From Escherichia phage IK_ECO1, in the sequence record PP975109.1: a DNA stretch of 43,567 nt, one strand, 5' to 3'. Numbering within the stretch: position 1 is the first letter of the stretch; the number at the start of each line of letters is the position of its first letter. The translations under genes and the position numbers were made by a program. The notes below the pieces were generated by a model that worked only from the letters and a program-made list of their open reading frames with translations, was not told the DNA's origin and ran no database searches. Positions 6,340 through 43,567 of this stretch are shown here, piece after piece.

Positions 6340-9300
6340 ATGGCTCAGTTTCTGAACCGAGAACCGAATCCACAGGAAAAGGATTCTGCTAAGGGCGCAA
6401 CACTTAAACCTGCGCCTACAAGCGTAGATTGGAATGACGCAGGAGATGATGGGCTGAATGCCCTACAGCGTTCATCTATACTGGCCCAGGCTAAAACCCC
6501 TGCGACGTCAGCAGGGGAGAGCTTTGCTGCTGGGGTTGGTAACAGCATTATAGCTGCAGCCATTAGAAAGGCCTCCTCCCCAACATTCGTCCCAGAGCAG
6601 GGGTTTGATGCTAAGAAACAACTAAGCACCGACTCCCGAGCTAAGCTCTACACCCCTAATCAGGAAGAGATTGATTACTTGCACGGGGCGGTGTCCCTGG
6701 ATGATTATAATTATCGCATTCAGGCTATGCTAGAACAGCGTGACCGTGACCGTCAGATGTCTGATAACACGGTAGCCGGGTTCACCGGTGCACTGGCTGG
6801 TGATGCTCCGTTTATACTGGCTCCGATGTCAGCGGCGGGTATCGCTGGTCGTGCTGGCTTAGCAGTGCGTACTGCTATCCGCGCAGCGGATGTAGGTACA
6901 GCTGTCTATGCACAAGATCAATTGGGACAGTCTGCGGCAGTCACTGCTCTGGTAGCAGGGGTAGCTGGACTAGACCAGCTCTGGGACATGTCTAAGGCTG
7001 CTAAAGTAGCAGCAAAGGCACGCACTGGGCGTGAGCCTATGTTTGACCCGGACGCGCCCACAACTCGTACAGCAAGGGATGCTAATGTTACAGGAGTAGG
7101 AGAAGGGGACACAATACTCACTAAGGTACTGGATGAACCTATCCAAGTTCGCCGGAATAACACTGCTGCTGTTAACATGAAAGCGCAGGACGTAGTCCGT
7201 TTCCTCAAGACCTCTGAACACTTATCTAAAGGTCAGAAGGCTATCCTGGACACCCTGGGTGATGCAGTACAGGATATTGATTTTAAACTGGTGGCTGGTT
7301 CTTCTAACCGTAGCCACTATGGATTTTCACCAGCATCAACCACTGATAGGGGTTTTGTATCTTTACGTGCCCCTAAGAAAGCTAACGGAAGTACCTGGAC
7401 TACTGCTAGGGACGCTCTGCGTGCTATGGATGCGGACACTAGCCGAGTAGCAGTGCACGAGCTGATTCACGCGGCCACCACCAGAGCCATCAAGCAGAAT
7501 CCTGAAATTGCGAGTAAGCTGGAAGAGGTGCGCGCTGCAATAGCATCAGATTCAACTCTTAGTGATAAATTCAAGTATTATGCAAGCGATGTGCACGAGA
7601 TGCTGGCTGGACTGGGAGACAGCCCTGAGTGGGTAGAGTACCTCTCTAGGACTAAATCCCCTACTGGTAAGAGTATGCTTCGCCAGATTGGTGAGTATAT
7701 CATGAATGCGCTTGGGGTCCGTACCAAGGGCTCCGCGCTGGAGGATGTTCTGGACGCGTACGAGGACGCTGTCAAGTGGACCGCAAAGGACTACGCAGAC
7801 CAAGCTCAGGGCTTCCGGAGTGAGTCCTTCCAGGACTTGGCGGATACATCGGTTAAGCATGAGGCCTTGAAAGCTCAGGCTATGATGGACACTGCTAAGC
7901 GTAAGCTCGCCACTATGTTCTCCTTGTATGATAACATCGCAGAAGGTAGTGAGGACCTAGCACGCTTATTAGTATCTGATGCTACTGCTGTAGGAGGTCG
8001 TAAGCCGTCTGTGGTGGACTTCAAGCGTAATCTTACGTTGGAGATGGACGCTAGTGCCAGTGTAGTTGAGGATGCTATACTAGGTGCCCTCAAGGCCAAA
8101 GGTGTAGGTTTCACGGACCGCTTCTTCCATCGTAGCAACTTCCGAGCAGCTCGCGCGGACTTAGAAGACCGCTTAGGCCGTTACCTGGACTCTGCATACA
8201 GTGCTGAGGTTAATGGGCGTCCTGTACCTCTGCCGGACTCCGACTTGGTTCCGCTCGTTGAGGCGTATCGCAACTCTGGTTGGGCTAGTAAGTGGCACGA
8301 CCACATGACCGCTGCCGGTTTAGTGGATGACGGTACTCTGGTTAAATCGGACTACTACTTCCCACGCCAGTATAGCTACGATAAGATGCGCCAAGGTATT
8401 GCAAATGGTCGCTCCCTGGATAATTATCGGGATCTGTTCCGTCAGGCATTACGTGACGTGTATCCATCTATGGAACCTGAGGTCGTTCAACGTGTTGCTA
8501 AGGAGATGGTTGATGGTATCTACAACGGACGCTCCTCGGCCTCTGGTCCTATGTGGAAGCAACTCATCAATGGTATGGGTAATGATGAAGTGGTTATGGC
8601 CATGCGTAATGCTGGCGTAGACGAGAGTGCAATCCAGAGTTTCTTGGCAGGTAATGTCCGAGAATCTGGCGCTACCTCGCCTGCTCGGAACCTGCGTCAA
8701 CGTACCCGCTTCAACATGGATAAAGAGTACATCGTGGATGGTCAGGCTATGCGTATGCAGGACCTGATGGACACTGACGTAGCCAAGGTAATGCACGGTT
8801 ACACCAACCGCATGTCTGGTCGTGTAGGTATGGCCTATGCTGGTGTCTCTGACCTCAAGACTCTAGAGACGATGATTAACGAGTCCAAACACGCCCTAGC
8901 CGATTCGGGTAAGTGGGAGAAGACTGTTAATGATACCATTGACTTTATCCTGGGTGGGGCCCCGGCCGATGCCGGGCAGATGCCGGACCTGTTGCGTGCA
9001 GCGGGGAATATGGCTAACGCTACCATGCTCAAGAACTCTGGATTGTACCAGCTTACTGACACCGCTCTGGCTCTGAAAGAGTTCGGTATGTCCCGAGTAC
9101 TCCGCAGTATGCGTGAGCAGCCCTGGTTTAAAGAGGGTGCCGTAGCTATTCGTAATCCGGACATGGCTAGTCGCCTGGATACAATCCTACGTGGCAGTAT
9201 CCAGAAGGAGATGCGCTTCCGCTGGCTGAATACCTACGCAGACGATAACTTGGACCTGACCCGTCAGGCTTCCTGGTTTAACGTCACGCAGAACGTTGGG

Positions 9301-15519: not shown

Positions 15520-17643
15520 ATGGCTCTCGTACGTAATATTACTGTCCCGAGTTATTACTCTGGACTTAACGTTGTTGACTACGGGGTAGTAGGCGACGGT
15601 ATCTCGGATGATACAGTAGCCTATACTCGAACTGTTGAAGCTGCTAATGCACTGCAACTGCCTGTATATGTACCTCCAGGTATGCGTGTCCGTATCACCG
15701 GTAGTTCTAACATTACACATAAGTACGGTTTTAACTTTAACGGCAGTACCTTGGATATTCAAGAGTATGCTGGTAAGTTCCTGTTCCAGCGCCAGGTAGC
15801 CCCTGTTCAATACTCTGCTGGTTCGCCACTTCTTACTGCTTTAGCAAGTACTACTTTAAGCGGAACTTATAACAGTGTTATGTCAGGCCGTACAGAACTG
15901 GATAACTGCTACGTAAATATAGTTACTAACCAGCCGTACTATACCTACCGTGGGGCTGTTACTACTCGTACTGAACGTTTAGCTGTAATCCGTAACGGTA
16001 TGCTTGAGGGCACTCTTAAATATCCGCTTGCAGGTTCTAGAATCACAGGCATCACTGCATACCCTCTTCCAGATAAGGAAGTAGTGTATGAGAACGTGGT
16101 GGTGGACGTAGGTGCTAATCAGCTGCAAGGTAACCCGTTCCTGATTGAGGCCGATAAGGTACGTTTAGAGAACTGGTCTTTTAAGCAATCTAACGTACTA
16201 TTTACCTCTGTAAATCCAGTATACGTAGTCATGCGTAACTGCTTCCATATGCGCGTACGCAACTTCCAGATGCAGTGGACTACTCGTACCGCTGCTAACA
16301 ACTTTACGTACGGCGTGGCTGCTGAGTACTGTTCAGATATCGAGTTTGACTCAATGAAAGGTGTAGGCGACGGTTGGGGCATGACCGGTTTCAACGAGAA
16401 TCGTCGCTGTACCTTCAGGAACTGTCAGCTTAGCCGAATAGATACGCACCAGCCTTTCATTGAATGGTTGCGTGTGCTGGACTGTGATACCGGTCAGTGG
16501 GGTATTAGTCTAACTGCCTTAGGTGATGTTATTGTTAAAGGTGGTAGCATTACCCTGACTAACGATAGCGTTTATACAGATAAGGTAGGCTTTATACTAT
16601 TGCGTAATGAGTGCGGCGGGGTACTGGATGGTCAGTTAGTAGTTGATGATGTTACCCTCAAGAACTACACCAGTACTACAACTCAAGCCTTAGTATATCA
16701 CCGTGGGGACTTAGCAGATGCCCCACCTTCAGGTTCCCCTGTTAACTTCCAATGCAGTAGCAGTATGCTCATCAAGAACCTGCGTTCAGATGGCCGCATC
16801 GTAGAGCTTGCCCCTACCATCAACGGTGCTTCAGGTATTAAGTACCCGGCCAGTATCGTAGTTCAGGACTGTATTGAAGGTATCTACAGCTTTGCTACTA
16901 ATATAAGTACCTTTACCCCGAACAGTACGATAACTACTCCAGTCGATAACGCCTTAGGTAGTATCTCGAATCTGAAGGTACAGTTACGTAGCTGCAATAT
17001 CCGCAGTAACGTCTCCCTGGTAGATACGTCCATCCCACAGAAATTTGTAGTGGATATGCTGCTTGATGGTGTATTCGGAAACGGTGCATTCAATCCGGGA
17101 CTACAGGTTAAGTTCGGAGGTACTGTCAGCTGTGTTAACTCTGTACTGGAAGGCTTGGACTTCTTCTCAGGGGCTGCACTGGACCGGTACTTGAAGGTGT
17201 CAGTAGTAGGTGGAGGTATTCGCCACACTGGACGTTTCCGTACTGTACCTGTGAACGGGGCTAATACCTTAGTCTCGGTTATTATCCAGGGAGCTGCATT
17301 GCAGAGCACTACGGCTGCTGCATTACGTTATTATATGGTGGCGCATCTGCAAGGTTGTACCTACAGCGTAGCCGGGTCTGCCAGTACCCCTACATTAACT
17401 GTCACCCCAGATGGTAGTACTAGTTACGATACTGGGGTAGTTGGTATTAACAGTAAGAACCTAATGCAACTTACAGCCAGTGTAAGTGGGGTACTTAGAA
17501 GGGTACCGTTCTTCCTGCCTGCTAGTGGTGGTAGTACTTACGTGCAGTTAGATAACGGTGTTTACGCTAACATAACCTACAGCGGAAGTACTGTAACTGT
17601 TTCTACCACAGCAGGTTTAGGCGGGATTACGTTGGTAGGCTGA
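15520..17643 (+). CDS. Tailspike / polysaccharide depolymerase, right-handed beta-helix (pectate-lyase-like), 707 aa
   Basis: N-terminal motif NVVDYGVVGDGISDDT typical of pectate lyase 3 / beta-helix tailspikes; last structural-type gene before the non-coding region; lacks T7 fiber anchor domain. Confidence 0.6.
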   Translation: MALVRNITVPSYYSGLNVVDYGVVGDGISDDTVAYTRTVEAANALQLPVYVPPGMRVRITGSSNITHKYGFNFNGSTLDIQEYAGKFLFQRQVAPVQYSAGSPLLTALASTTLSGTYNSVMSGRTELDNCYVNIVTNQPYYTYRGAVTTRTERLAVIRNGMLEGTLKYPLAGSRITGITAYPLPDKEVVYENVVVDVGANQLQGNPFLIEADKVRLENWSFKQSNVLFTSVNPVYVVMRNCFHMRVRNFQMQWTTRTAANNFTYGVAAEYCSDIEFDSMKGVGDGWGMTGFNENRRCTFRNCQLSRIDTHQPFIEWLRVLDCDTGQWGISLTALGDVIVKGGSITLTNDSVYTDKVGFILLRNECGGVLDGQLVVDDVTLKNYTSTTTQALVYHRGDLADAPPSGSPVNFQCSSSMLIKNLRSDGRIVELAPTINGASGIKYPASIVVQDCIEGIYSFATNISTFTPNSTITTPVDNALGSISNLKVQLRSCNIRSNVSLVDTSIPQKFVVDMLLDGVFGNGAFNPGLQVKFGGTVSCVNSVLEGLDFFSGAALDRYLKVSVVGGGIRHTGRFRTVPVNGANTLVSVIIQGAALQSTTAAALRYYMVAHLQGCTYSVAGSASTPTLTVTPDGSTSYDTGVVGINSKNLMQLTASVSGVLRRVPFFLPASGGSTYVQLDNGVYANITYSGSTVTVSTTAGLGGITLVG

Positions 17644-17662
17644 GGCATATCTGAGGCATATC
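17641..17662. repeat. Tandem 11-mer tgaggcatatc x2 beginning at the tailspike stop codon
   Basis: Seen directly in sequence. Confidence 0.8.
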
Positions 17663-17681
17663 TCAGGAAAGTGCATTAAGG

Positions 17682-17707
17682 TACATGGAAATCCTACATG
17701 GAAATCC
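17682..17707. repeat. Perfect tandem 13-mer tacatggaaatcc x2
   Basis: Seen directly in sequence. Confidence 0.85.
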
Positions 17708-17819
17708 CAGACTGAGCGCATGTAAACGTGCAGTTCATTTTTATTATACTTATGCGAGGACCTCCCTCACCCTCAACGCGCCCCAGTGCCCCCATAGGGG
17801 GTGCCCAGTGGAAATTAGA

Positions 17820-17830
17820 GGGGGGGGGGG
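17820..17830. repeat. G11 homopolymer flanked by palindromes (cccccataggggg; gcaggccaactagtgggcctgc)
   Basis: Seen directly in sequence. Confidence 0.8.
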
Positions 17831-17857
17831 TGGACGTTTAGACGTCTAGCAGGCCAA

Positions 17858-18280
17858 CTAGTGGGCCTGCTAGTGCGCTCTAGGGAGCCGTAGAAGCTCC
17901 CTGCGTGCCTTAGTGGGTATTGCTAGTGCTATCCTATGCTTATCGCTGTGTGCCTCTTGTAGAAGCTCTGGGAAGCTCTGGGAGGCACTGGGCTATCCCT
18001 TGCTATCCCTGCGTATTCACTGGGTGCGCTCTGGGCTATCCCTGCGTGCTCTCTGTGGGGCGTAGGGGGTGCGCTCTGCCTTGCTTATTTTGTGCCTGTA
18101 TTGTGCGCCTAGTGGGCCAGCTAGTGCGCTGTGGTGCTATCCCTAGTGCGTACTAGGCTATCCACTGGCTATCCTTAGTGCTTTACATTGTGCCGATTCT
18201 GTGCTACGCTGCGCGCTCCCCACTAGGGCGCACATCCACTACCCACCACACACCGCCACCTAGTGCTATCTCTTCACCCT
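17858..18280. repeat. Dense family of short direct repeats (ctagtg(c/g), gctatcc(c)t, gaagctctggg x2, ctgggctatccctgcgt x2) in non-coding DNA; probable genome-terminus / packaging or replication-associated region
   Basis: Repeats read by eye; no credible ORF; resembles short-repeat arrays near T7-type genome ends. Confidence 0.5.
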
Positions 18281-18309
18281 TACTTTCATTCGAAAGCTAA
18301 TAAGAAATG

Positions 18310-18327
18310 ATGTTACAGGAGTAGGAG
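18310..18327 (+). promoter_or_regulatory. Copy of repeated motif atgttacaggagtaggag in non-coding region; candidate phage RNAP promoter
   Basis: Exact identity with copies at 7085 and 38994. Confidence 0.4.
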
Positions 18328-18781
18328 GGTTTTAGGGCACTACATACACACTACCTACTACTACTCACTAGTATCCCCTAGTAATGCCCTATATTACGAC
18401 CGTAGGGAGTAAGCATTACCTACACAGTCACCGCATCACTACGTGCCCTTTCACTTCGTACGGGCACTACGTTCTGCTTATGTAGTGTTAGATGGTATTA
18501 GTTAGCATTGGCTAGTATTGGTTACAGCCATTGGCTGCATAGTGCTATCTCTAGAGCTATCACTAGAATAGAAGCATTGGCTAAGTGTTTGCCCTGCTTA
18601 CTCTTTTTGCTCTTAAGGATAAATAGTTGCAAAAAGTATCAAATAGTACTTGCTTCTTTTGGTTTATTGGCGCTATAGTTCAATCACCGGGAGGCACTGA
18701 GGCGCTGAACGGGGTAGAGTCGGGAGACTCCACCGGATTAAAGCTAGATGGTGTGAAGGGTTAGATACTCGATAAAAAGAG

Positions 18782-18810
18782 TTGACACCGCGAAGAACAT
18801 AAGCTAGATT
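18782..18810 (+). promoter_or_regulatory. Candidate host sigma70 early promoter: TTGACA - 17 nt - TAGATT
   Basis: Perfect -35 hexamer, 17-nt spacer, -10 with TAnnnT; upstream of early genes on the coding strand. Confidence 0.45.
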
Positions 18811-19010
18811 GAATCCCGAAGTAAGTAGTAAGGGTCGCTACCGGCTCCCACGGTAGCAGTTCGGGAAGGTACTACAACCTAACAAGGGCTTGACTAGCCC
18901 GCTAGTGTACCGCTGAGGCGGAGTAATACAGGACGCAAAGTGTCGCCCGCTGAGGGGCTACAGCTCACGGGGGAGGTTAACAGGCTCCCGATTTAGTAAG
19001 AAATAAACGC

Positions 19011-19039
19011 TTGACAAGTTCCGCTTACCTGAGTAACTT
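19011..19039 (+). promoter_or_regulatory. Candidate host sigma70 early promoter: TTGACA - 17 nt - TAACTT
   Basis: Perfect -35 hexamer, 17-nt spacer, weaker -10; further TTGACT/TTGACG hexamers at 18890, 19092, 19104 lack good -10 elements. Confidence 0.35.
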
Positions 19040-19070
19040 AGATAGTGAACAACGTAGTAAGCTGGTTTGC

Positions 19071-19082
19071 GGGGGGGGGGGG
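19071..19082. repeat. G12 homopolymer in the early leader
   Basis: Seen directly in sequence. Confidence 0.8.
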
Positions 19083-19431
19083 CCCAGTACCTTGACTGGT
19101 ACGTTGACGACCCATCCCCTAGACAATCAGTAGTAGTGAAGATGTAACGTCAAGAGCTGAGACGACAAACGGCTGGGGCGCTGAGGCGCTGCCCCTTAAA
19201 AGAATAGCGCCGAGAGGTTGAGTCCCTTCCACGGTTGTGCAGTGGGTCGTACTCACAGGTTGGCAGTCCTGAGCCGATAAGTGCATAGGCAGTCGCTCCC
19301 GTATCCAGTGAGCGCGGCAAATACTGCTGGTATCCTAGCAACCACTGGGCTAGGGGTGTTTGAGTTGGGTTTTAGGCGGGCAAATACATTCCGCCAGAAC
19401 TCAACCCATCAAACACTGAGAGGAGTACACA

Positions 19432-19647
19432 ATGAAATATCGTGATAAGTTAGCGCAACAATTCGCGGGGTTGGGGAAGCTATCTGGCGCTGAGTTGAGG
19501 AAGCGTCGGGATGCACTAAATCGTGCTGGGTATATGCGGGTGAAGCAATCTGCGACGTTCAGTACGAATGTACGCGGTAAGACCAAAACAAAGGGCAGTA
19601 GCAAGGCCCCGCAAGGCTGGTATACTGCTGGGCAGTTCGGACGCTAA
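19432..19647 (+). CDS. Early hypothetical protein, 71 aa, basic
   Basis: RBS gaggag 7 nt upstream of ATG; first ORF after the promoter region. Confidence 0.5.
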   Translation: MKYRDKLAQQFAGLGKLSGAELRKRRDALNRAGYMRVKQSATFSTNVRGKTKTKGSSKAPQGWYTAGQFGR

Positions 19648-19676
19648 TTACAGCCTATAGCATCCTGTGGGGTGCT
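19642..19676 (+). promoter_or_regulatory. Conserved stem-loop element, copy 1 (agcctatagcatcctgtggggtgctatgtgaagta)
   Basis: One of three related intergenic elements; stem tagcatcc / gggtgcta. Confidence 0.4.
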
Positions 19677-19725
19677 ATGTGAAGTAATTCGTTAGGTAAA
19701 CAATCAACAATCGATGAGGTGTATC

Positions 19726-20443: not shown

Positions 20444-20478
20444 AGCCTATAGCGTCCTACGGGGCGCTATGTGAATAC
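20444..20478 (+). promoter_or_regulatory. Conserved stem-loop element, copy 2 (agcctatagcgtcctacggggcgctatgtgaatac)
   Basis: Stem tagcgtcc / gggcgcta; differs from copy 1 by paired compensatory changes. Confidence 0.4.
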
Positions 20479-27747: not shown

Positions 27748-27780
27748 CTAGCGCCTTCCTAGAGGGCGCTATGTAGGTAC
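27748..27780 (+). promoter_or_regulatory. Conserved stem-loop element, copy 3 (ctagcgccttcctagagggcgctatgtaggtac)
   Basis: Stem tagcgcc / ggcgcta followed by tatgt…gta as in copies 1 and 2. Confidence 0.35.
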
Positions 27781-30957: not shown

Positions 30958-31080
30958 TGATAGGTGGACCCTTGGGTGGTGTAGGGGGTTAGGGTAACAT
31001 GAGAATTAGCTGGGGTCAAGCAGATAATTAAATAAAATTATTTGTTGACTCTGGCTTGATTTTGTGATTCACAGAGAATT

Positions 31081-31099
31081 AATGTGATACGAGTAGGAA
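31081..31099 (+). promoter_or_regulatory. Variant of the repeated motif (aatgtgatacgagtaggaa), 20 nt upstream of the HNH gene at 31119; candidate phage RNAP promoter
   Basis: 16 of 19 positions match aatgttacaggagtaggaa; lies in an AT-rich intergenic segment. Confidence 0.3.
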
Positions 31100-36518: not shown

Positions 36519-38987
36519 ATGATTAGCGCCCTGAATACGGTTGTAGTACCAGAGGAAGCACTGGTGGAACGCCAGTTGGAGCTTGAAGAGACCTACAAGA
36601 TTCGCGGCATTGAACGTGCTCGCAAATTGATTACCGATGCTCTACAAAACGGCGGGATTATGAACCTGCCTATGACTCAGCGCATGCTAACCTCTGCGTA
36701 CGACGTGGCCTCTGCAGCCATTGAGGAAATGCGTAATGTCAAAGCCCCGGGTATCGGTGGAAAGTACCGCCGATTCCTACGCTTAGTCCCCTTGGATGTC
36801 CTAACTACTCTGAGCCTGTGCACAATGTTTGAGGCGTTCAGTGTTGCCCCTGGTGAGTCCGCCAGTCGCCGCCAGACAGCTCAGGCAGTGATGTCCGCTC
36901 TGGGTAGGAATGTACAGTCAGAGCTGCTGGCCCTACAACTACGTAATGTTGCTCCAGCGTATATGGACCGGGTATATGAATACCTCACTGAGCGCCGTAC
37001 TAAGTCACCTACGCACATTCTGCGTACGCTCCGCGCCAGTGCTGAGAACGTGCACTATGGGCATGAGCCTTGGACCAACGCTCATAATATTTCTGTGGGA
37101 CGTCTGCTGTGTTCCGCAGTGTTTGAGACGGGGCTGTTCCAGTGGAAGACTGGTAGCGGGAACTTGAGTATGCTCTATCCCGCAGATAATGTTATGGAAG
37201 CATTTCAGCAGTTAGTGGAATCTGCTGACACTGTAACTATGAAGCCTCCGATGCTGGTACCGCCGGTGCAACATACTACACTGTGGGATGGTGGATACCT
37301 CACCCCAATCGATAACCGTGGGACGTACCACAACTCACACATTGACCGCGCCAGACTGCGTGAAGTAGCGGAAGCATTTAAGTCTGCGGACGGTATCAAG
37401 AAGGCACTTAATAAGGCGCAGGAAACCCCTTATCGCATTAATAAGCGAATACTGGAACTGGTACAAGAAGCACGGGCCTTAGGTATTGGTGTAGGTATGC
37501 CGCGCTCAGTGCCAGAGCCGAAACCTGAGTGGTACTTAGATGGTGTACCAAAAGAGAATTACACCGAGGAGGAACTCGACCGCTTCGGAGAGTGGAAGAC
37601 GCGCATGTCCTTATGGTACAGCGCCGACCGTAAACGTGTGTCGCAACTACGTAGTCTATTGACCACGCTAGAGATGGCAGAGGAATTCAAAGATGAGAAA
37701 GCCCTATACTTCCCAACCTGTGTGGATTGGCGGTACCGGCTGTACTTCAAGTCCTCACTGCACCCCCAAGGTTCTGATTTGCAGAAGGCACTTCTTGAAT
37801 TCGGACGAGGTAAACCTCTGGGAGAGAGAGGGTTATTCTGGCTTAAAGTGCACGTCGCTACCTGTTTTGGTTATGACAAAACCCTATTCGAAGACCGTGC
37901 AGCTTGGGTTGATGCAAACTTTGCAGAGATTGAGCAGCTCGCGGATTCTCCTTTTGATTGCCCTGCTTTTACCTCCGCCGACAGCCCTTGGTGCTTCCTG
38001 GCAGCCGCTATCGACTTGGTTAATGCTGTACGTTCTGGATGCCCAGAAGAGTATATTAGCCGAATCCCAGTTGCTATGGATGCTACAAACTCAGGTGGTC
38101 AGCACCTCTCAGCGCTCCTGAGAGACCCTGTAGGCGGGCGTCTGACTAACCTGTACTGGGAGGGTAACGACAAGAAAGCGGACCTGTATATGGACGTGAA
38201 GCGCCGTACGGACGAGAAGGTGATACTGGACCTGGACAAAGAGGATTTCGTTATCCAGAGCACGTACTGGAGAGAGAACGAAATCACTCGAAGCATGACC
38301 AAGCGTCCTAGCATGACCTACTTCTACAGCGCCACGGTGCGCAGCTGCAGCGACTACATCTTTGCAGGGGCCTGTGAAGAGGGGTATGAAGGAACAGACA
38401 CGCACAGTCTCTGGAACCTTTCCTGCTACCTTGCCCCTAGGATGCGTAGCGCTATCGAGGAAGCTAACCCGGCAGCAGCAGCAGCTATGGGGTATCTGCA
38501 GAACCTCGCTAGGCGTGTACCTGCTAGTCAGCACCTGCAGTGGAAGACCCCGCTAGGGGGGCTGGTGATGAACCGGTACTCTCAACGAGAGGAGGTGCGT
38601 GTACGTATTGACTGCATGAACTTGTCTGCCGTGCTGGTGCACAACCGTGACTTTAAGACCTGTAATAAGCGCAAGGCCGCCTCTGGTATTGCCCCGAACT
38701 TTGTACATAGCCTGGATAGCACACACCTCATGATGGTGCTCTGTGCTGCAGAAGGTATAGATATTATACCTATTCACGATTCGATGGCTACTCACGCATC
38801 TGACGTTGATGCTCTGCACCGCCATATCCGTGAACAGTTTGTGAAGCTGTACGAGGAGCATGATCTTCTGGGGGATATTACCCGAGCAGCTGCTGAAGCG
38901 GGGGCAGATCTTACAGACCTGGAGATGCCTGCAATAGGTACTTTGGACATCCGACAAGTACTGGAATCACCCTTCTTCTTCTCATAA
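36519..38987 (+). CDS. DNA-directed RNA polymerase, single-subunit T7-type, 822 aa
   Basis: Catalytic-region motifs AMDATNSGGQHLSALL (T7 DGSCSGIQHFSAML equivalent) and IPIHDSMATHASD (T7 HDSFGT equivalent); size. Confidence 0.9.
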   Translation: MISALNTVVVPEEALVERQLELEETYKIRGIERARKLITDALQNGGIMNLPMTQRMLTSAYDVASAAIEEMRNVKAPGIGGKYRRFLRLVPLDVLTTLSLCTMFEAFSVAPGESASRRQTAQAVMSALGRNVQSELLALQLRNVAPAYMDRVYEYLTERRTKSPTHILRTLRASAENVHYGHEPWTNAHNISVGRLLCSAVFETGLFQWKTGSGNLSMLYPADNVMEAFQQLVESADTVTMKPPMLVPPVQHTTLWDGGYLTPIDNRGTYHNSHIDRARLREVAEAFKSADGIKKALNKAQETPYRINKRILELVQEARALGIGVGMPRSVPEPKPEWYLDGVPKENYTEEELDRFGEWKTRMSLWYSADRKRVSQLRSLLTTLEMAEEFKDEKALYFPTCVDWRYRLYFKSSLHPQGSDLQKALLEFGRGKPLGERGLFWLKVHVATCFGYDKTLFEDRAAWVDANFAEIEQLADSPFDCPAFTSADSPWCFLAAAIDLVNAVRSGCPEEYISRIPVAMDATNSGGQHLSALLRDPVGGRLTNLYWEGNDKKADLYMDVKRRTDEKVILDLDKEDFVIQSTYWRENEITRSMTKRPSMTYFYSATVRSCSDYIFAGACEEGYEGTDTHSLWNLSCYLAPRMRSAIEEANPAAAAAMGYLQNLARRVPASQHLQWKTPLGGLVMNRYSQREEVRVRIDCMNLSAVLVHNRDFKTCNKRKAASGIAPNFVHSLDSTHLMMVLCAAEGIDIIPIHDSMATHASDVDALHRHIREQFVKLYEEHDLLGDITRAAAEAGADLTDLEMPAIGTLDIRQVLESPFFFS

Positions 38988-38993
38988 AATTTA

Positions 38994-39010
38994 ATGTTAC
39001 AGGAGTAGGA
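38994..39010 (+). promoter_or_regulatory. Copy of repeated motif atgttacaggagtagga directly downstream of the RNAP gene, abutting the ATG of the next gene; candidate phage RNAP promoter
   Basis: Exact identity with copies at 7085 and 18310; position analogous to T7 promoters just downstream of gene 1. Confidence 0.4.
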
Positions 39011-41333: not shown

Positions 41334-42206
41334 ATGGACGGCGTAGAAACCACTCAAACTAACGTAACAACTACCCAGGTAGAGAACCAAGGCGGCCCTA
41401 AGATTCCGGGCCTGGGCGCTCCTCTTAACGCCCCAAATAATCAGGGTGTGCAGGATGCGCAGATCTCTATGCAGCAGCAACAGGGCAAAGATTCCCCTGC
41501 ACCTGCAGTAGTTCCGGCAGTAGCTCCAGCACAGATTCCTCTGGATATCGAAGCCCTAAAAGCGGCCCTTAATGACAAGGGTGGCGATAGCACCAAAGAG
41601 CAGCCTCAGGAGCTGGCTCAAACAGGCAACCCGACGATTGATGCCGGTGTAGCAATGTTGAAGCAAGTCTCTGGGTTAACTGACTCGGACATGGTGCGGG
41701 CACTTAGTAAGGCCCTGGAGTATCAGGACCCTAACCTAATCGATACGGCCTTCATCAAGGAGCGCTTCGGTGAGCACGCTGCGTATGCAGAGCTGCTGGC
41801 TAAGGCATATCTTGAAGACCAGGTGGGACAAGCCACTAAGGCTGTACAGGAAGCGTATGACCTCGTAGGCGGGAAGGAGAATTGGGAGGTAGCAGCGCAG
41901 CTGTTTAATTCCAAGGCCCCAGAGCCTCTACGTAAGGCTGCACGAGTCCTGGCTGATTCTGGTGAGCTTAAACAGGCAGCAGAGTTAGTGGCAGGTTACT
42001 GCCGTGATATGGGTCTTATCAAGACCTCAAATCCATTGGTACGTGGTGTCCCTGGCAACAATGCCTTGTCCGCTGCGGACTTCAAAGTAGAGTATGCTAA
42101 ACTGCGTCAGGAGGCAGGGAACCGAAGCTTGGAATCCCAGCAGTTCAGTCAACGTTATCACGATTTACTCGCACGCCGTGAAGCCGGTAAACGCGTAGGT
42201 CTTTAA
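41334..42206 (+). CDS. Scaffolding protein, 290 aa
   Basis: Position between portal and capsid; acidic, Ala/Gln-rich, helical composition. Confidence 0.5.
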   Translation: MDGVETTQTNVTTTQVENQGGPKIPGLGAPLNAPNNQGVQDAQISMQQQQGKDSPAPAVVPAVAPAQIPLDIEALKAALNDKGGDSTKEQPQELAQTGNPTIDAGVAMLKQVSGLTDSDMVRALSKALEYQDPNLIDTAFIKERFGEHAAYAELLAKAYLEDQVGQATKAVQEAYDLVGGKENWEVAAQLFNSKAPEPLRKAARVLADSGELKQAAELVAGYCRDMGLIKTSNPLVRGVPGNNALSAADFKVEYAKLRQEAGNRSLESQQFSQRYHDLLARREAGKRVGL

Positions 42207-43463: not shown

Positions 43464-43502
43464 CGCCCCTGGTGCCTTCGGGTGCCAGGGGCTTTTTTTT
43501 TT
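43464..43502 (+). terminator. Rho-independent terminator: 12-bp stem gcccctggtgcc / ggtgccaggggc, UUCG loop, T11 tail
   Basis: Seen in sequence; lies after the capsid gene cluster, analogous to T7 T-phi; the T-run is also the start of the window. Confidence 0.8.
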
Positions 43503-43567
43503 TGTCCCTGTCTTAAGGGTCCTAGGGGTCTTTAATAGAGGAACAAATATGAGAGAATTAGATGCTG

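Follow-up and report, generated by a model that had tools for sequence, protein, structure and literature searches.

Two long runs of guanine in the genome record of Escherichia phage IK_ECO1 (PP975109.1), G11 at 17820–17830 (tract 1) and G12 at 19071–19082 (tract 2), raise the question of whether they are genuine elements of the phage or traces of the way its sequence was assembled, and whether they tell where the ends of the genome lie. The window analyzed here is the whole stretch of 43,567 nt. Its initial annotation had offered two readings of the runs: real tracts near the termini, slippery or prone to form G-quadruplexes (G4), or poly-G artefacts that mark physical DNA ends. Our comparison with related genomes suggests that the two runs differ in nature. 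Tract 1 is very probably a real and conserved element inside the direct terminal repeat (DTR), and tract 2 is likely to be a real expansion private to the lineage of this phage.

Direct reading of the sequence confirmed both runs and their separation of about 1.25 kb (1,251 nt from start to start). All other G or C homopolymers in the 43.6-kb window are 6 nt long or shorter. For G runs of at least 11 nt, an independent-base model gives a chance expectation of 0.024 in the window, and a first-order Markov model gives 0.016; finding two is far above chance, in agreement with the annotated rarity of long G runs. Their non-coding location was also borne out by the open reading frame (ORF) list: both are inside the gene-free stretch of 1.79 kb at 17644–19431, the only long one in the window, which is bordered by the end of the tail-spike gene (17643) and the start of the first early gene (19432). 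Both tracts are G on the + strand, every long ORF is also on the + strand, and the longest G run within coding sequence in the whole window is 6 nt.

Positions 1–77 of the window repeat positions 43491–43567 with a single mismatch (position 25, C versus A), and this 77-nt end overlap indicates that the contig is a circularized assembly with a unit length of 43,490. The only other long homopolymer, T11 at 3–13, is one site with 43493–43503 through this overlap; it is located just after the capsid-gene module and resembles a usual late terminator. The non-coding region (1.85 kb) matches 261 phage records, 243 of which are Klebsiella phages. The closest matches to the window are E. coli drulisviruses, and its coding DNA is approximately 91% identical to those of the E. 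coli/Shigella drulisviruses Minorna, EC22.5-2, PSK2, phiHAO78-1, and SFN6B. The annotated gene order of phiHAO78-1 is of the KP34 type (early, DNA metabolism, RNA polymerase, structural, terminase, lysis, and tail spike). Judging from these matches, the window is a circularly permuted genome of a Drulisvirus-like (KP34-like) podophage of the T7 superfamily, in which the two copies of the DTR have been collapsed into one.

Tract 1 and the predicted terminal repeat

Homology to annotated and mapped DTRs places the single collapsed copy, with a predicted length of 312 bp, at approximately 17765–18076 on the + strand. Tract 1 occupies nt 56–66 of this repeat, downstream of an end-proximal palindrome, CCCCCATAGGGGG, at nt 25–37 (17789–17801, + strand). 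In order to assess the conservation of this arrangement, 38 distinct Drulisvirus-type DTR sequences from IMG/VR and GenBank were compared. A G run or G cluster is present 15–31 nt 3′ of the palindrome in 37 of the 38 sequences, and the layout of the window matches. The run is uninterrupted and at least 9 nt long in 22/38, with lengths of 9–15 in clean assemblies (G14 in NTUH-K2044-K1-1 and G10 in KpV475), and 15/38 display interrupted clusters of 4–5 G at the site (GGGGGTGGGG, GGGGGCGGGG, GGGGTGGGGTGGG, or GGGGCGGGGTGGGGG), the types of which include G5NG4 and G4TG4TG3. The repeats have a common architecture: the first ~45 nt are at least 90% conserved and are followed by a variable A/T-rich spacer, the G element, and divergent sequence. 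At least five different spacer haplotypes carry long G runs at this site. The flanks of tract 1 are collinear with those of the relatives on both sides, and the G11 of the window, on the gene-coding strand, is within their length range. On these sequence comparisons, tract 1 is very probably the window's version of an element found across the genus, hypervariable in length and kept in position, and this version is ordinary for Drulisvirus. We found no description of poly-G, homopolymer, or G-quadruplex sequences in Drulisvirus/KP34 terminal repeats in the literature; tract 1 appears to be a further member of a feature visible in many public genomes of the genus.

The ends of the repeat were placed as follows. 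The predicted left end is CCTCACCCTCAACGCG and the predicted right end is ...GGGGGTGCGCTC. The left end of Drulisvirus-type phages reads CCTCACCCT, which in the window begins at 17765. The genomes with an annotated DTR all start with (C)CTCACCCT: AttikonH1 (1–247), KpV475 (1–243), KP34 (1–216), phiBO1E (1–224), and fHe-Kpn01 (1–222). The fHe-Kpn01 genome starts with CCTCACCC; its ends were determined with PhageTerm, by ligation of adaptors, and by Sanger sequencing (PMC7291057). The first 48 nt of the predicted DTR match 221 records, many of which begin at nt 1–3 and have an annotated left direct repeat there. The end most similar to that of the window is found in Kpn13 (95.8% over 48 nt). Positions 1–52 of the Kpn13 record (GenBank OQ790081, L158) are an Oxford Nanopore Technologies adapter with a native barcode, ttacgtattgct-AAGGTTAA-N24-CAGCACCT, whose format, AAGGTTAA-N24-CAGCACCT, was confirmed from a published description (PMC11984142). 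The adapter is joined directly to CCTCACCCTC, that is, to the CCTCACCC end; it is a contamination of the record that incidentally marks the physical left end at CCTCACCCTC. On the other side, the DTRs of KP34, KpV475, and AttikonH1 have the right edge ...GGGGTGCGCTC followed by TGCCTT, and the junction of the window at 18076/18077 is identical, while the DTR of fHe-Kpn01 ends with ...GGGCGCTC. We infer from these matches that the boundaries of the window DTR are close to 17765 and 18076. Thus the suggestion that the tracts are near the termini and point to the genome ends holds for tract 1, which lies 56–66 nt inside the predicted left end and points to it by homology and not as an artefact; it fails for tract 2, which lies 1.3 kb inside. 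As a dependable homology landmark for the left end and the DTR, tract 1 should allow re-orientation of the contig and restoration of the missing second DTR copy.

The palindrome itself is invariant in 33 distinct Drulisvirus DTRs and is predicted to form a hairpin in single-strand folds. An element of the type CCCC(C)-A/G-TAGG begins at DTR nt 25–29 in T7, T3, SP6, phiKMV, and KP34; among these five, only T7 (L041, 26–38) and KP34 (L152) have the exact CCCCCATAGGGGG palindrome, and T3 (L151), SP6 (L153), and phiKMV (L150) do not. In these five representatives of Autographiviridae subfamilies, the element looks like a family-wide genome-end signal; in the drulisviruses compared, the G element keeps a fixed place beside it. 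A literature search for the string CCCCCATAGGGGG found nothing. An intrinsic terminator formed by the palindrome or the tracts was considered and rejected: the palindrome is followed by the A/T-rich spacer and then by G, with no T run, and the terminator scan was empty at both tracts.

Tract 1 is also a site at which assemblies of this genus go wrong. The SPAdes node of EC22.5-2 terminates inside the run, the PSK2 record begins with G10, and the IMG/VR contigs L013 and L014 end within the run. L009 (13058–13250) contains an inverted duplication joined via poly-G/poly-C (G23/G12/C10/C16/C20), and L007 (12082–12132) has G19 followed by sequence unlike that of every other relative there, being chimeric 3′ of the run. 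These two contigs are useful examples of true poly-G assembly artefacts. Run lengths are likewise imprecise: two copies within one record disagree by 1–2 nt (G12 in L033 versus G13 in L037), and public homopolymer lengths differ at one site each in phiHAO78-1 (16 versus 14) and EC22.5-2 (12 versus 11). The tract accounts for the frequent breaks, starts, and chimeras of Drulisvirus assemblies at this position.

Several further candidates at this site were discarded. Inspection of the DTR comparison showed that a sigma-70 or leftward promoter overlapping tract 1 is not conserved across haplotypes, and neither is a small ORF started by the AAGGAGG-like spacer near it. L147 and L050 have the palindrome followed by G5NG4, but they share no proteins with the window and were left out of the count; the G cluster of L147 is part of an ordinary terminator consisting of a hairpin and a T run. 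A broad IMG/VR scan for CCCCCATAGGGGGT returned mostly chance 14-mer matches in unrelated contigs, and an Rfam scan of 17600–19500 with an E-value of 1 or lower returned no match.

A terminal repeat of 1.25 kb bounded by both tracts was rejected, because the mapped DTRs of the relatives are 212–247 bp long and the end motif is present at 18066–18076. For the same reason, the spacing of the tracts has no apparent meaning, and we regard them as unrelated objects. The predicted DTR of the window exceeds those of its relatives in length, and extra short tandem repeats help to account for this; tandem-repeat analysis identified about three copies of the 10-nt repeat GAAGCTCTGG at 17962–17992 (+ strand), and phiHAO78-1 has four copies. 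The unique non-coding DNA at the right end, between the tail-spike stop codon in the ORF list and the DTR (17644–17764, + strand), also contains short tandem repeats. More generally, 17640–18660 is packed with short repeats (CTGAGGCATAT ×2.5, TACATGGAAATCC ×2, GAAGCTCTGG ×3, and arrays of the GCTATCCCT and CTAGTG types), the copy numbers of which vary among relatives.

Tract 2 and the early leader

Tract 2 begins 1,306 nt inside the predicted left end, in the leader of the early genes, which the host polymerase transcribes. The relatives read GCGG(G/T)GAGGCCCAGTACC at this site in 21 of 21 cases. Among these 21 are the five closest relatives; the E. coli phages nearest to the window and Kpn13 are also covered. 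In the window the flanks are identical to those of the relatives, and the sequence is GC-G12-CCCAGTACC. A pattern search for at least 7 G at the site found none in IMG/VR, and the same pattern gave a single, unrelated chance match in JGI metagenomes. The comparison with relatives therefore describes tract 2 (19071–19082, + strand) as a private expansion of the heptamer GG(G/T)GAGG. The conversion of GGGGAGG to G12 requires one A-to-G substitution and five extra G, and the most likely origin would be replication slippage on a G7 that had itself come from an A-to-G change. Tract 2 probably has little or no function. Its exact length is not to be trusted from the assembly alone, and the tract serves as a caution, being either a real slippage product or an error.

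Private G expansions appear to recur in the clade of the window. The GGGG of the window at 19669–19672 corresponds in phiHAO78-1 to a G11, placed in the loop of an ATAGCA...TGCTAT hairpin, and a second private run of G14–16 in phiHAO78-1, whose copies differ in length, is located between the tail-spike gene and the DTR. These runs are found at 63–76 and 2216–2226 of L004 and at 17–32, 41705–41715, and 43855–43868 of L154. The window sequence at the hairpin belongs to an element of the type TCCT(A/G)NGGGG(C/T)GCTATGT, three copies of which are present in the early/middle region (19663–19680, 20455–20472, and 27757–27774); the copy at 19657–19678 forms the ATAGCA...TGCTAT hairpin and may be a processing or termination site.

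The surroundings of tract 2 are those of an early leader. The promoter scan found an early sigma-70-type promoter, TTGACA-17-TAGATT, at 18782–18810 (+ strand), whose homologous site is annotated in KpV475 and KP34, and a second one, TTGACA-17-TAACTT, at 19011–19039 (+ strand), is homologous to the annotated promoter 1038–1066 of KpV475. Tract 2 starts 32 nt past the -10 hexamer of the latter and 350 nt before the first start codon. Directly 3′ of the tract is a hairpin, GTACC-TTGACT-GGTAC (19087–19102, + strand), which is conserved and appears in the fold. It shows compensatory changes, GCACC/GGTGC in L031 and ATACC/GGTAT in L004, suggesting that it is a structured element of the early leader. 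Pairing of tract 2 with the downstream CCCATCCCC was rejected, as the partner is not conserved in the relatives.

The leader also contains, at 18308–18326, one of four copies of a 19-nt motif of the TAATGTTACAGGAGTAGGA family, which is conserved in the leaders of the relatives. All four copies in the window (7083–7101, 18308–18326, 31080–31098, and 38992–39010) are on the + strand. We infer that the motif is a candidate promoter of the phage RNA polymerase, with the 18308 copy positioned like T7 phiOL.

A possible polymerase barrier and its alternatives

What could the G element beside the genome end do? In T7, T3, and SP6, the heptamer ATCTGTT is found at the right edge of the DTR (161–167 in T7, L041, with a 160-bp repeat; 232–238 in T3, L151, with 231 bp; and 174–180 in SP6, L153, with 174 bp), and this class II signal has been located at the T7 concatemer junction (preprint 10.1101/2021.01.11.426313). 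ATCTGTT was not found in 17644–19431 of the window or in the DTRs of the window, KP34, fHe-Kpn01, and KpV475. Since drulisviruses are without ATCTGTT at the DTR edge, we propose tract 1 as a candidate for their polymerase barrier. A CTCTCTGTG motif near the right DTR edge is common to T7 and the drulisviruses.

All genes run from left to right, as would late read-through across a concatemer junction, and the G run of tract 1 is therefore on the non-template strand. At the junction, tract 1 would then form a barrier against the phage RNA polymerase, the gene for which is at 36519–38987 of the window; the early region of the next genome unit would be insulated by it, and transcription pausing might be coupled to cutting by the terminase. 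T7 RNA polymerase is blocked by G-rich non-template sequence in an orientation-dependent manner via R-loops (PMC3561996), CSB II (conserved sequence block II) causes termination not only of the mitochondrial enzyme but also of T7 RNA polymerase via a DNA:RNA hybrid quadruplex (PMC4176368), and POLRMT is terminated by continuous G9–G18 with an efficiency that increases with length (PMC5027508). Both tracts have at least 9 G on the non-template strand, as expected of a CSB II-like terminator. A simple G4-propensity score ranks them highest (2.12 and 2.08) among all 25-nt windows of the sequence, and a G4-aware RNA fold gave a two-layer quadruplex in each tract and none in the ancestral GGGGAGG. 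By analogy with these systems, a pause or barrier function of tract 1 is conceivable; it is the mechanism that we prefer, though we put it forward as a doubtful suggestion. The fuller proposal, a length-tunable signal for pausing and termination through an R-loop or hybrid G4 that would replace ATCTGTT, couple arrest to end maturation, and thus be a phage counterpart of CSB II, seems unlikely, if slightly less remote than the alternatives of artefact and switch considered below. If it were true, tract 2 and other private expansions of its type would amount to barriers of this kind that were copied by accident, for tract 2 into the early leader. Taken as a whole, the explanation that blends the identities of the tracts with this function receives somewhat more of our trust than of our doubt.

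Several observations weigh against it. F19 (L157), the one DTR among the 38 without a G run or cluster at the canonical site, has TCAATTTA followed directly by CACTGG; its G11 sits ~50 nt deeper in its repeat, of which only 119 bp are annotated, and this could reflect either true relocation of the run or a problem in finishing. An error would be confined to one assembly, and so is tract 2. The relatives share descent, so that the conservation counts are not independent, and even in the absence of selection, non-coding DNA could retain a neutral tract that is prone to slippage. The barrier role is drawn by analogy from other polymerases and not from the Drulisvirus enzyme. G11 and G12 alone would form no canonical three-tetrad quadruplex and two tetrads at most. 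Tract 1 is in the left part of the DTR and the T7-type signal is at the right edge, and thus their positions do not correspond. The 414-bp repeat of phiKMV has neither ATCTGTT nor a G tract, and therefore a missing T7 signal does not predict a G tract. Finally, the terminator scan found a weak terminator-like site, a hairpin with a T-rich stretch, at 17718–17731 (+ strand) just upstream of the DTR, and late transcripts may not reach the repeat. The structural searches were also negative in part. The canonical G4 motif (four G3 runs with loops of 1–7, or at least 15 G) is absent from both tracts, as G11-TGG and G12-CCC give three G3 runs at most; single-strand DNA folds around the tracts did not exceed shuffled sequence in stability (z = -1.2, -0.5, and +0.95) and gave no evidence of an unusual hairpin involving the tracts themselves.

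Tract 1 might instead be a functionless mutational hotspot, in which slippage alters the length and point mutations give the G5NG4 forms. The run length varies between 9 and 15 without an obvious optimum and even between copies in one record, the interrupted forms resemble decayed homopolymers, F19 has no run at the site, long runs are absent from coding sequence as if they were merely tolerated outside genes, and private G expansions occur elsewhere in the non-coding DNA of the clade. Outright loss in many lineages would be expected of such a hotspot, however, and G-richness is found at one position in 37/38 DTRs on at least five flank haplotypes, while the 8–10-nt spacer and the downstream sequence diverge freely. 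Furthermore, the interrupted forms retain two or three runs of 4–5 G, and F19 has its G11 elsewhere in the repeat. We consider neutrality a serious rival of the barrier, though somewhat doubtful. A function of tract 1 at the level of DNA, unconnected with transcription, has also to be weighed, whether in recognition by the terminase or portal, in stalling of a DNA polymerase as the DTR is duplicated in packaging, or, as a strong G:C site, in nucleating the annealing of the single-stranded repeat tails from which concatemers form. The left end of T7-type DNA occupies the exit channel and is the first to enter the cell, and tract 1 is inside the predicted DTR beside its most conserved 45 nt, including the palindrome-type element that T7, T3, SP6, and phiKMV have at the same distance from the end. 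A recognition site does not normally tolerate length variation of 9–15 nt or interrupted clusters, though, and no G tract at this position is needed for the same end chemistry in T7, T3, SP6, and phiKMV; we regard a DNA-level role as a serious rival too, if an unlikely one.

The remaining two explanations concern tract 2 in particular. Sequencing or assembly artefacts, such as two-color poly-G or homopolymer miscalls at incorporated DNA ends, would fit a tract found in one assembly only, with the unexpanded heptamer in 21/21 relatives and no counterpart in IMG/VR or JGI metagenomes. The contig looks unpolished, having a mismatch in its 77-nt end overlap, and homopolymer lengths are unreliable in the public relatives phiHAO78-1 and EC22.5-2, as described above. 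Poly-G read tails, however, yield runs at contig ends or chimeras, as in L007 and L009, and both tracts are internal with aligned, collinear flanks. Dozens of genomes that many laboratories sequenced independently, some of them with mapped termini, have tract 1 at the homologous position, and the start of tract 1 is 55 nt away from the end and not at the end; tract 2 is 1.3 kb from the end, with the conserved leader continuous on both sides. The change from GGGGAGG to G12, a substitution with a 5-nt insertion, would be an atypical miscall, and the independent isolate phiHAO78-1 has a similar expansion. Thus, the annotated possibility that poly-G artefacts mark the DNA ends finds no support at either tract, and an artefact at one or both of them is quite unlikely, even though tract 2 is absent from the independent relatives (0/21). 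Less probable still is a contingency switch, formed by tract 2 and perhaps also by tract 1, in which length changes through slippage would tune the expression of the early genes by the sigma-70 promoters, much as phase variation does in bacteria. Tract 2 is in the early leader ~32 nt past a -10 box and ahead of the first gene, changes of its length would alter the predicted RNA structure, and a poly-G7 to G13 variation at a ribosome-binding site is known in T7-like Yersinia phages (PMC5923468). On the other hand, tract 2 is outside any promoter spacer, ribosome-binding site, or ORF, with the first start codon 350 nt downstream, and it is private to one genome with no sign of maintained variability, and neither a promoter nor a credible ORF is near tract 1.

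The interest of tract 1 as a polymerase barrier appears modest and speculative. Even so, tract 1 is a candidate for how phages without ATCTGTT stop the polymerase or process concatemer junctions.

Comparison with known systems

The assembly breaks at tract 1 are similar to those produced by poly-G tails of two-color Illumina reads and by homopolymers in general, in that the contigs of the relatives end, start, or turn chimeric there. Unlike such read-tail artefacts, both tracts of the window are internal with collinear flanks, and tract 1 is very probably conserved biology and no product of the instrument. A comparable variation between closely related T7-type phages has been described in the Yersinia phages of the fPS series, in which a poly-G tract varies from G7 to G13 and poly-C tracks occur inside the left terminal repeat (PMC5923468, Table 4). 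The fPS phages belong to another subfamily, however, and their tracts are at other positions; the one of poly-G7 to G13 belongs to a ribosome-binding site.

The class II signal ATCTGTT of T7, T3, and SP6 is the proposed analogue of tract 1. Both are short cis elements tied to the terminal repeat of T7-superfamily phages, and a single-subunit RNA polymerase that moves from left to right reads the heptamer on the non-template strand. The two have no sequence similarity, and their placement differs, tract 1 being 56–66 nt from the left edge of the repeat and ATCTGTT exactly at the right edge. With CSB II (G5-6AG7-8, with continuous variants), tract 1 shares the nature of a length-polymorphic non-template G tract and an association with a T7-related single-subunit polymerase. 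CSB II makes replication primers at an origin, whereas no origin role is indicated for tract 1, and the sequences are not homologous. The repeat arrays at 17640–18660 recall the short repeat arrays that flank the terminal repeat of T7.

The closest counterparts of the predicted window DTR are those of other drulisviruses (KP34, KpV475, NTUH-K2044-K1-1, and fHe-Kpn01). They have in common the CCTCACCC start, the palindrome at nt 25–37, the G tract or cluster, the right-edge motif ...GGGGTGCGCTC, and the same early promoters downstream. The window differs from them in the predicted length of its DTR (312 bp, compared to 212–247 bp), in the spacer haplotype GGAAATTAGA, which it shares with Kpn13 only, and in the private G12 of its early leader.

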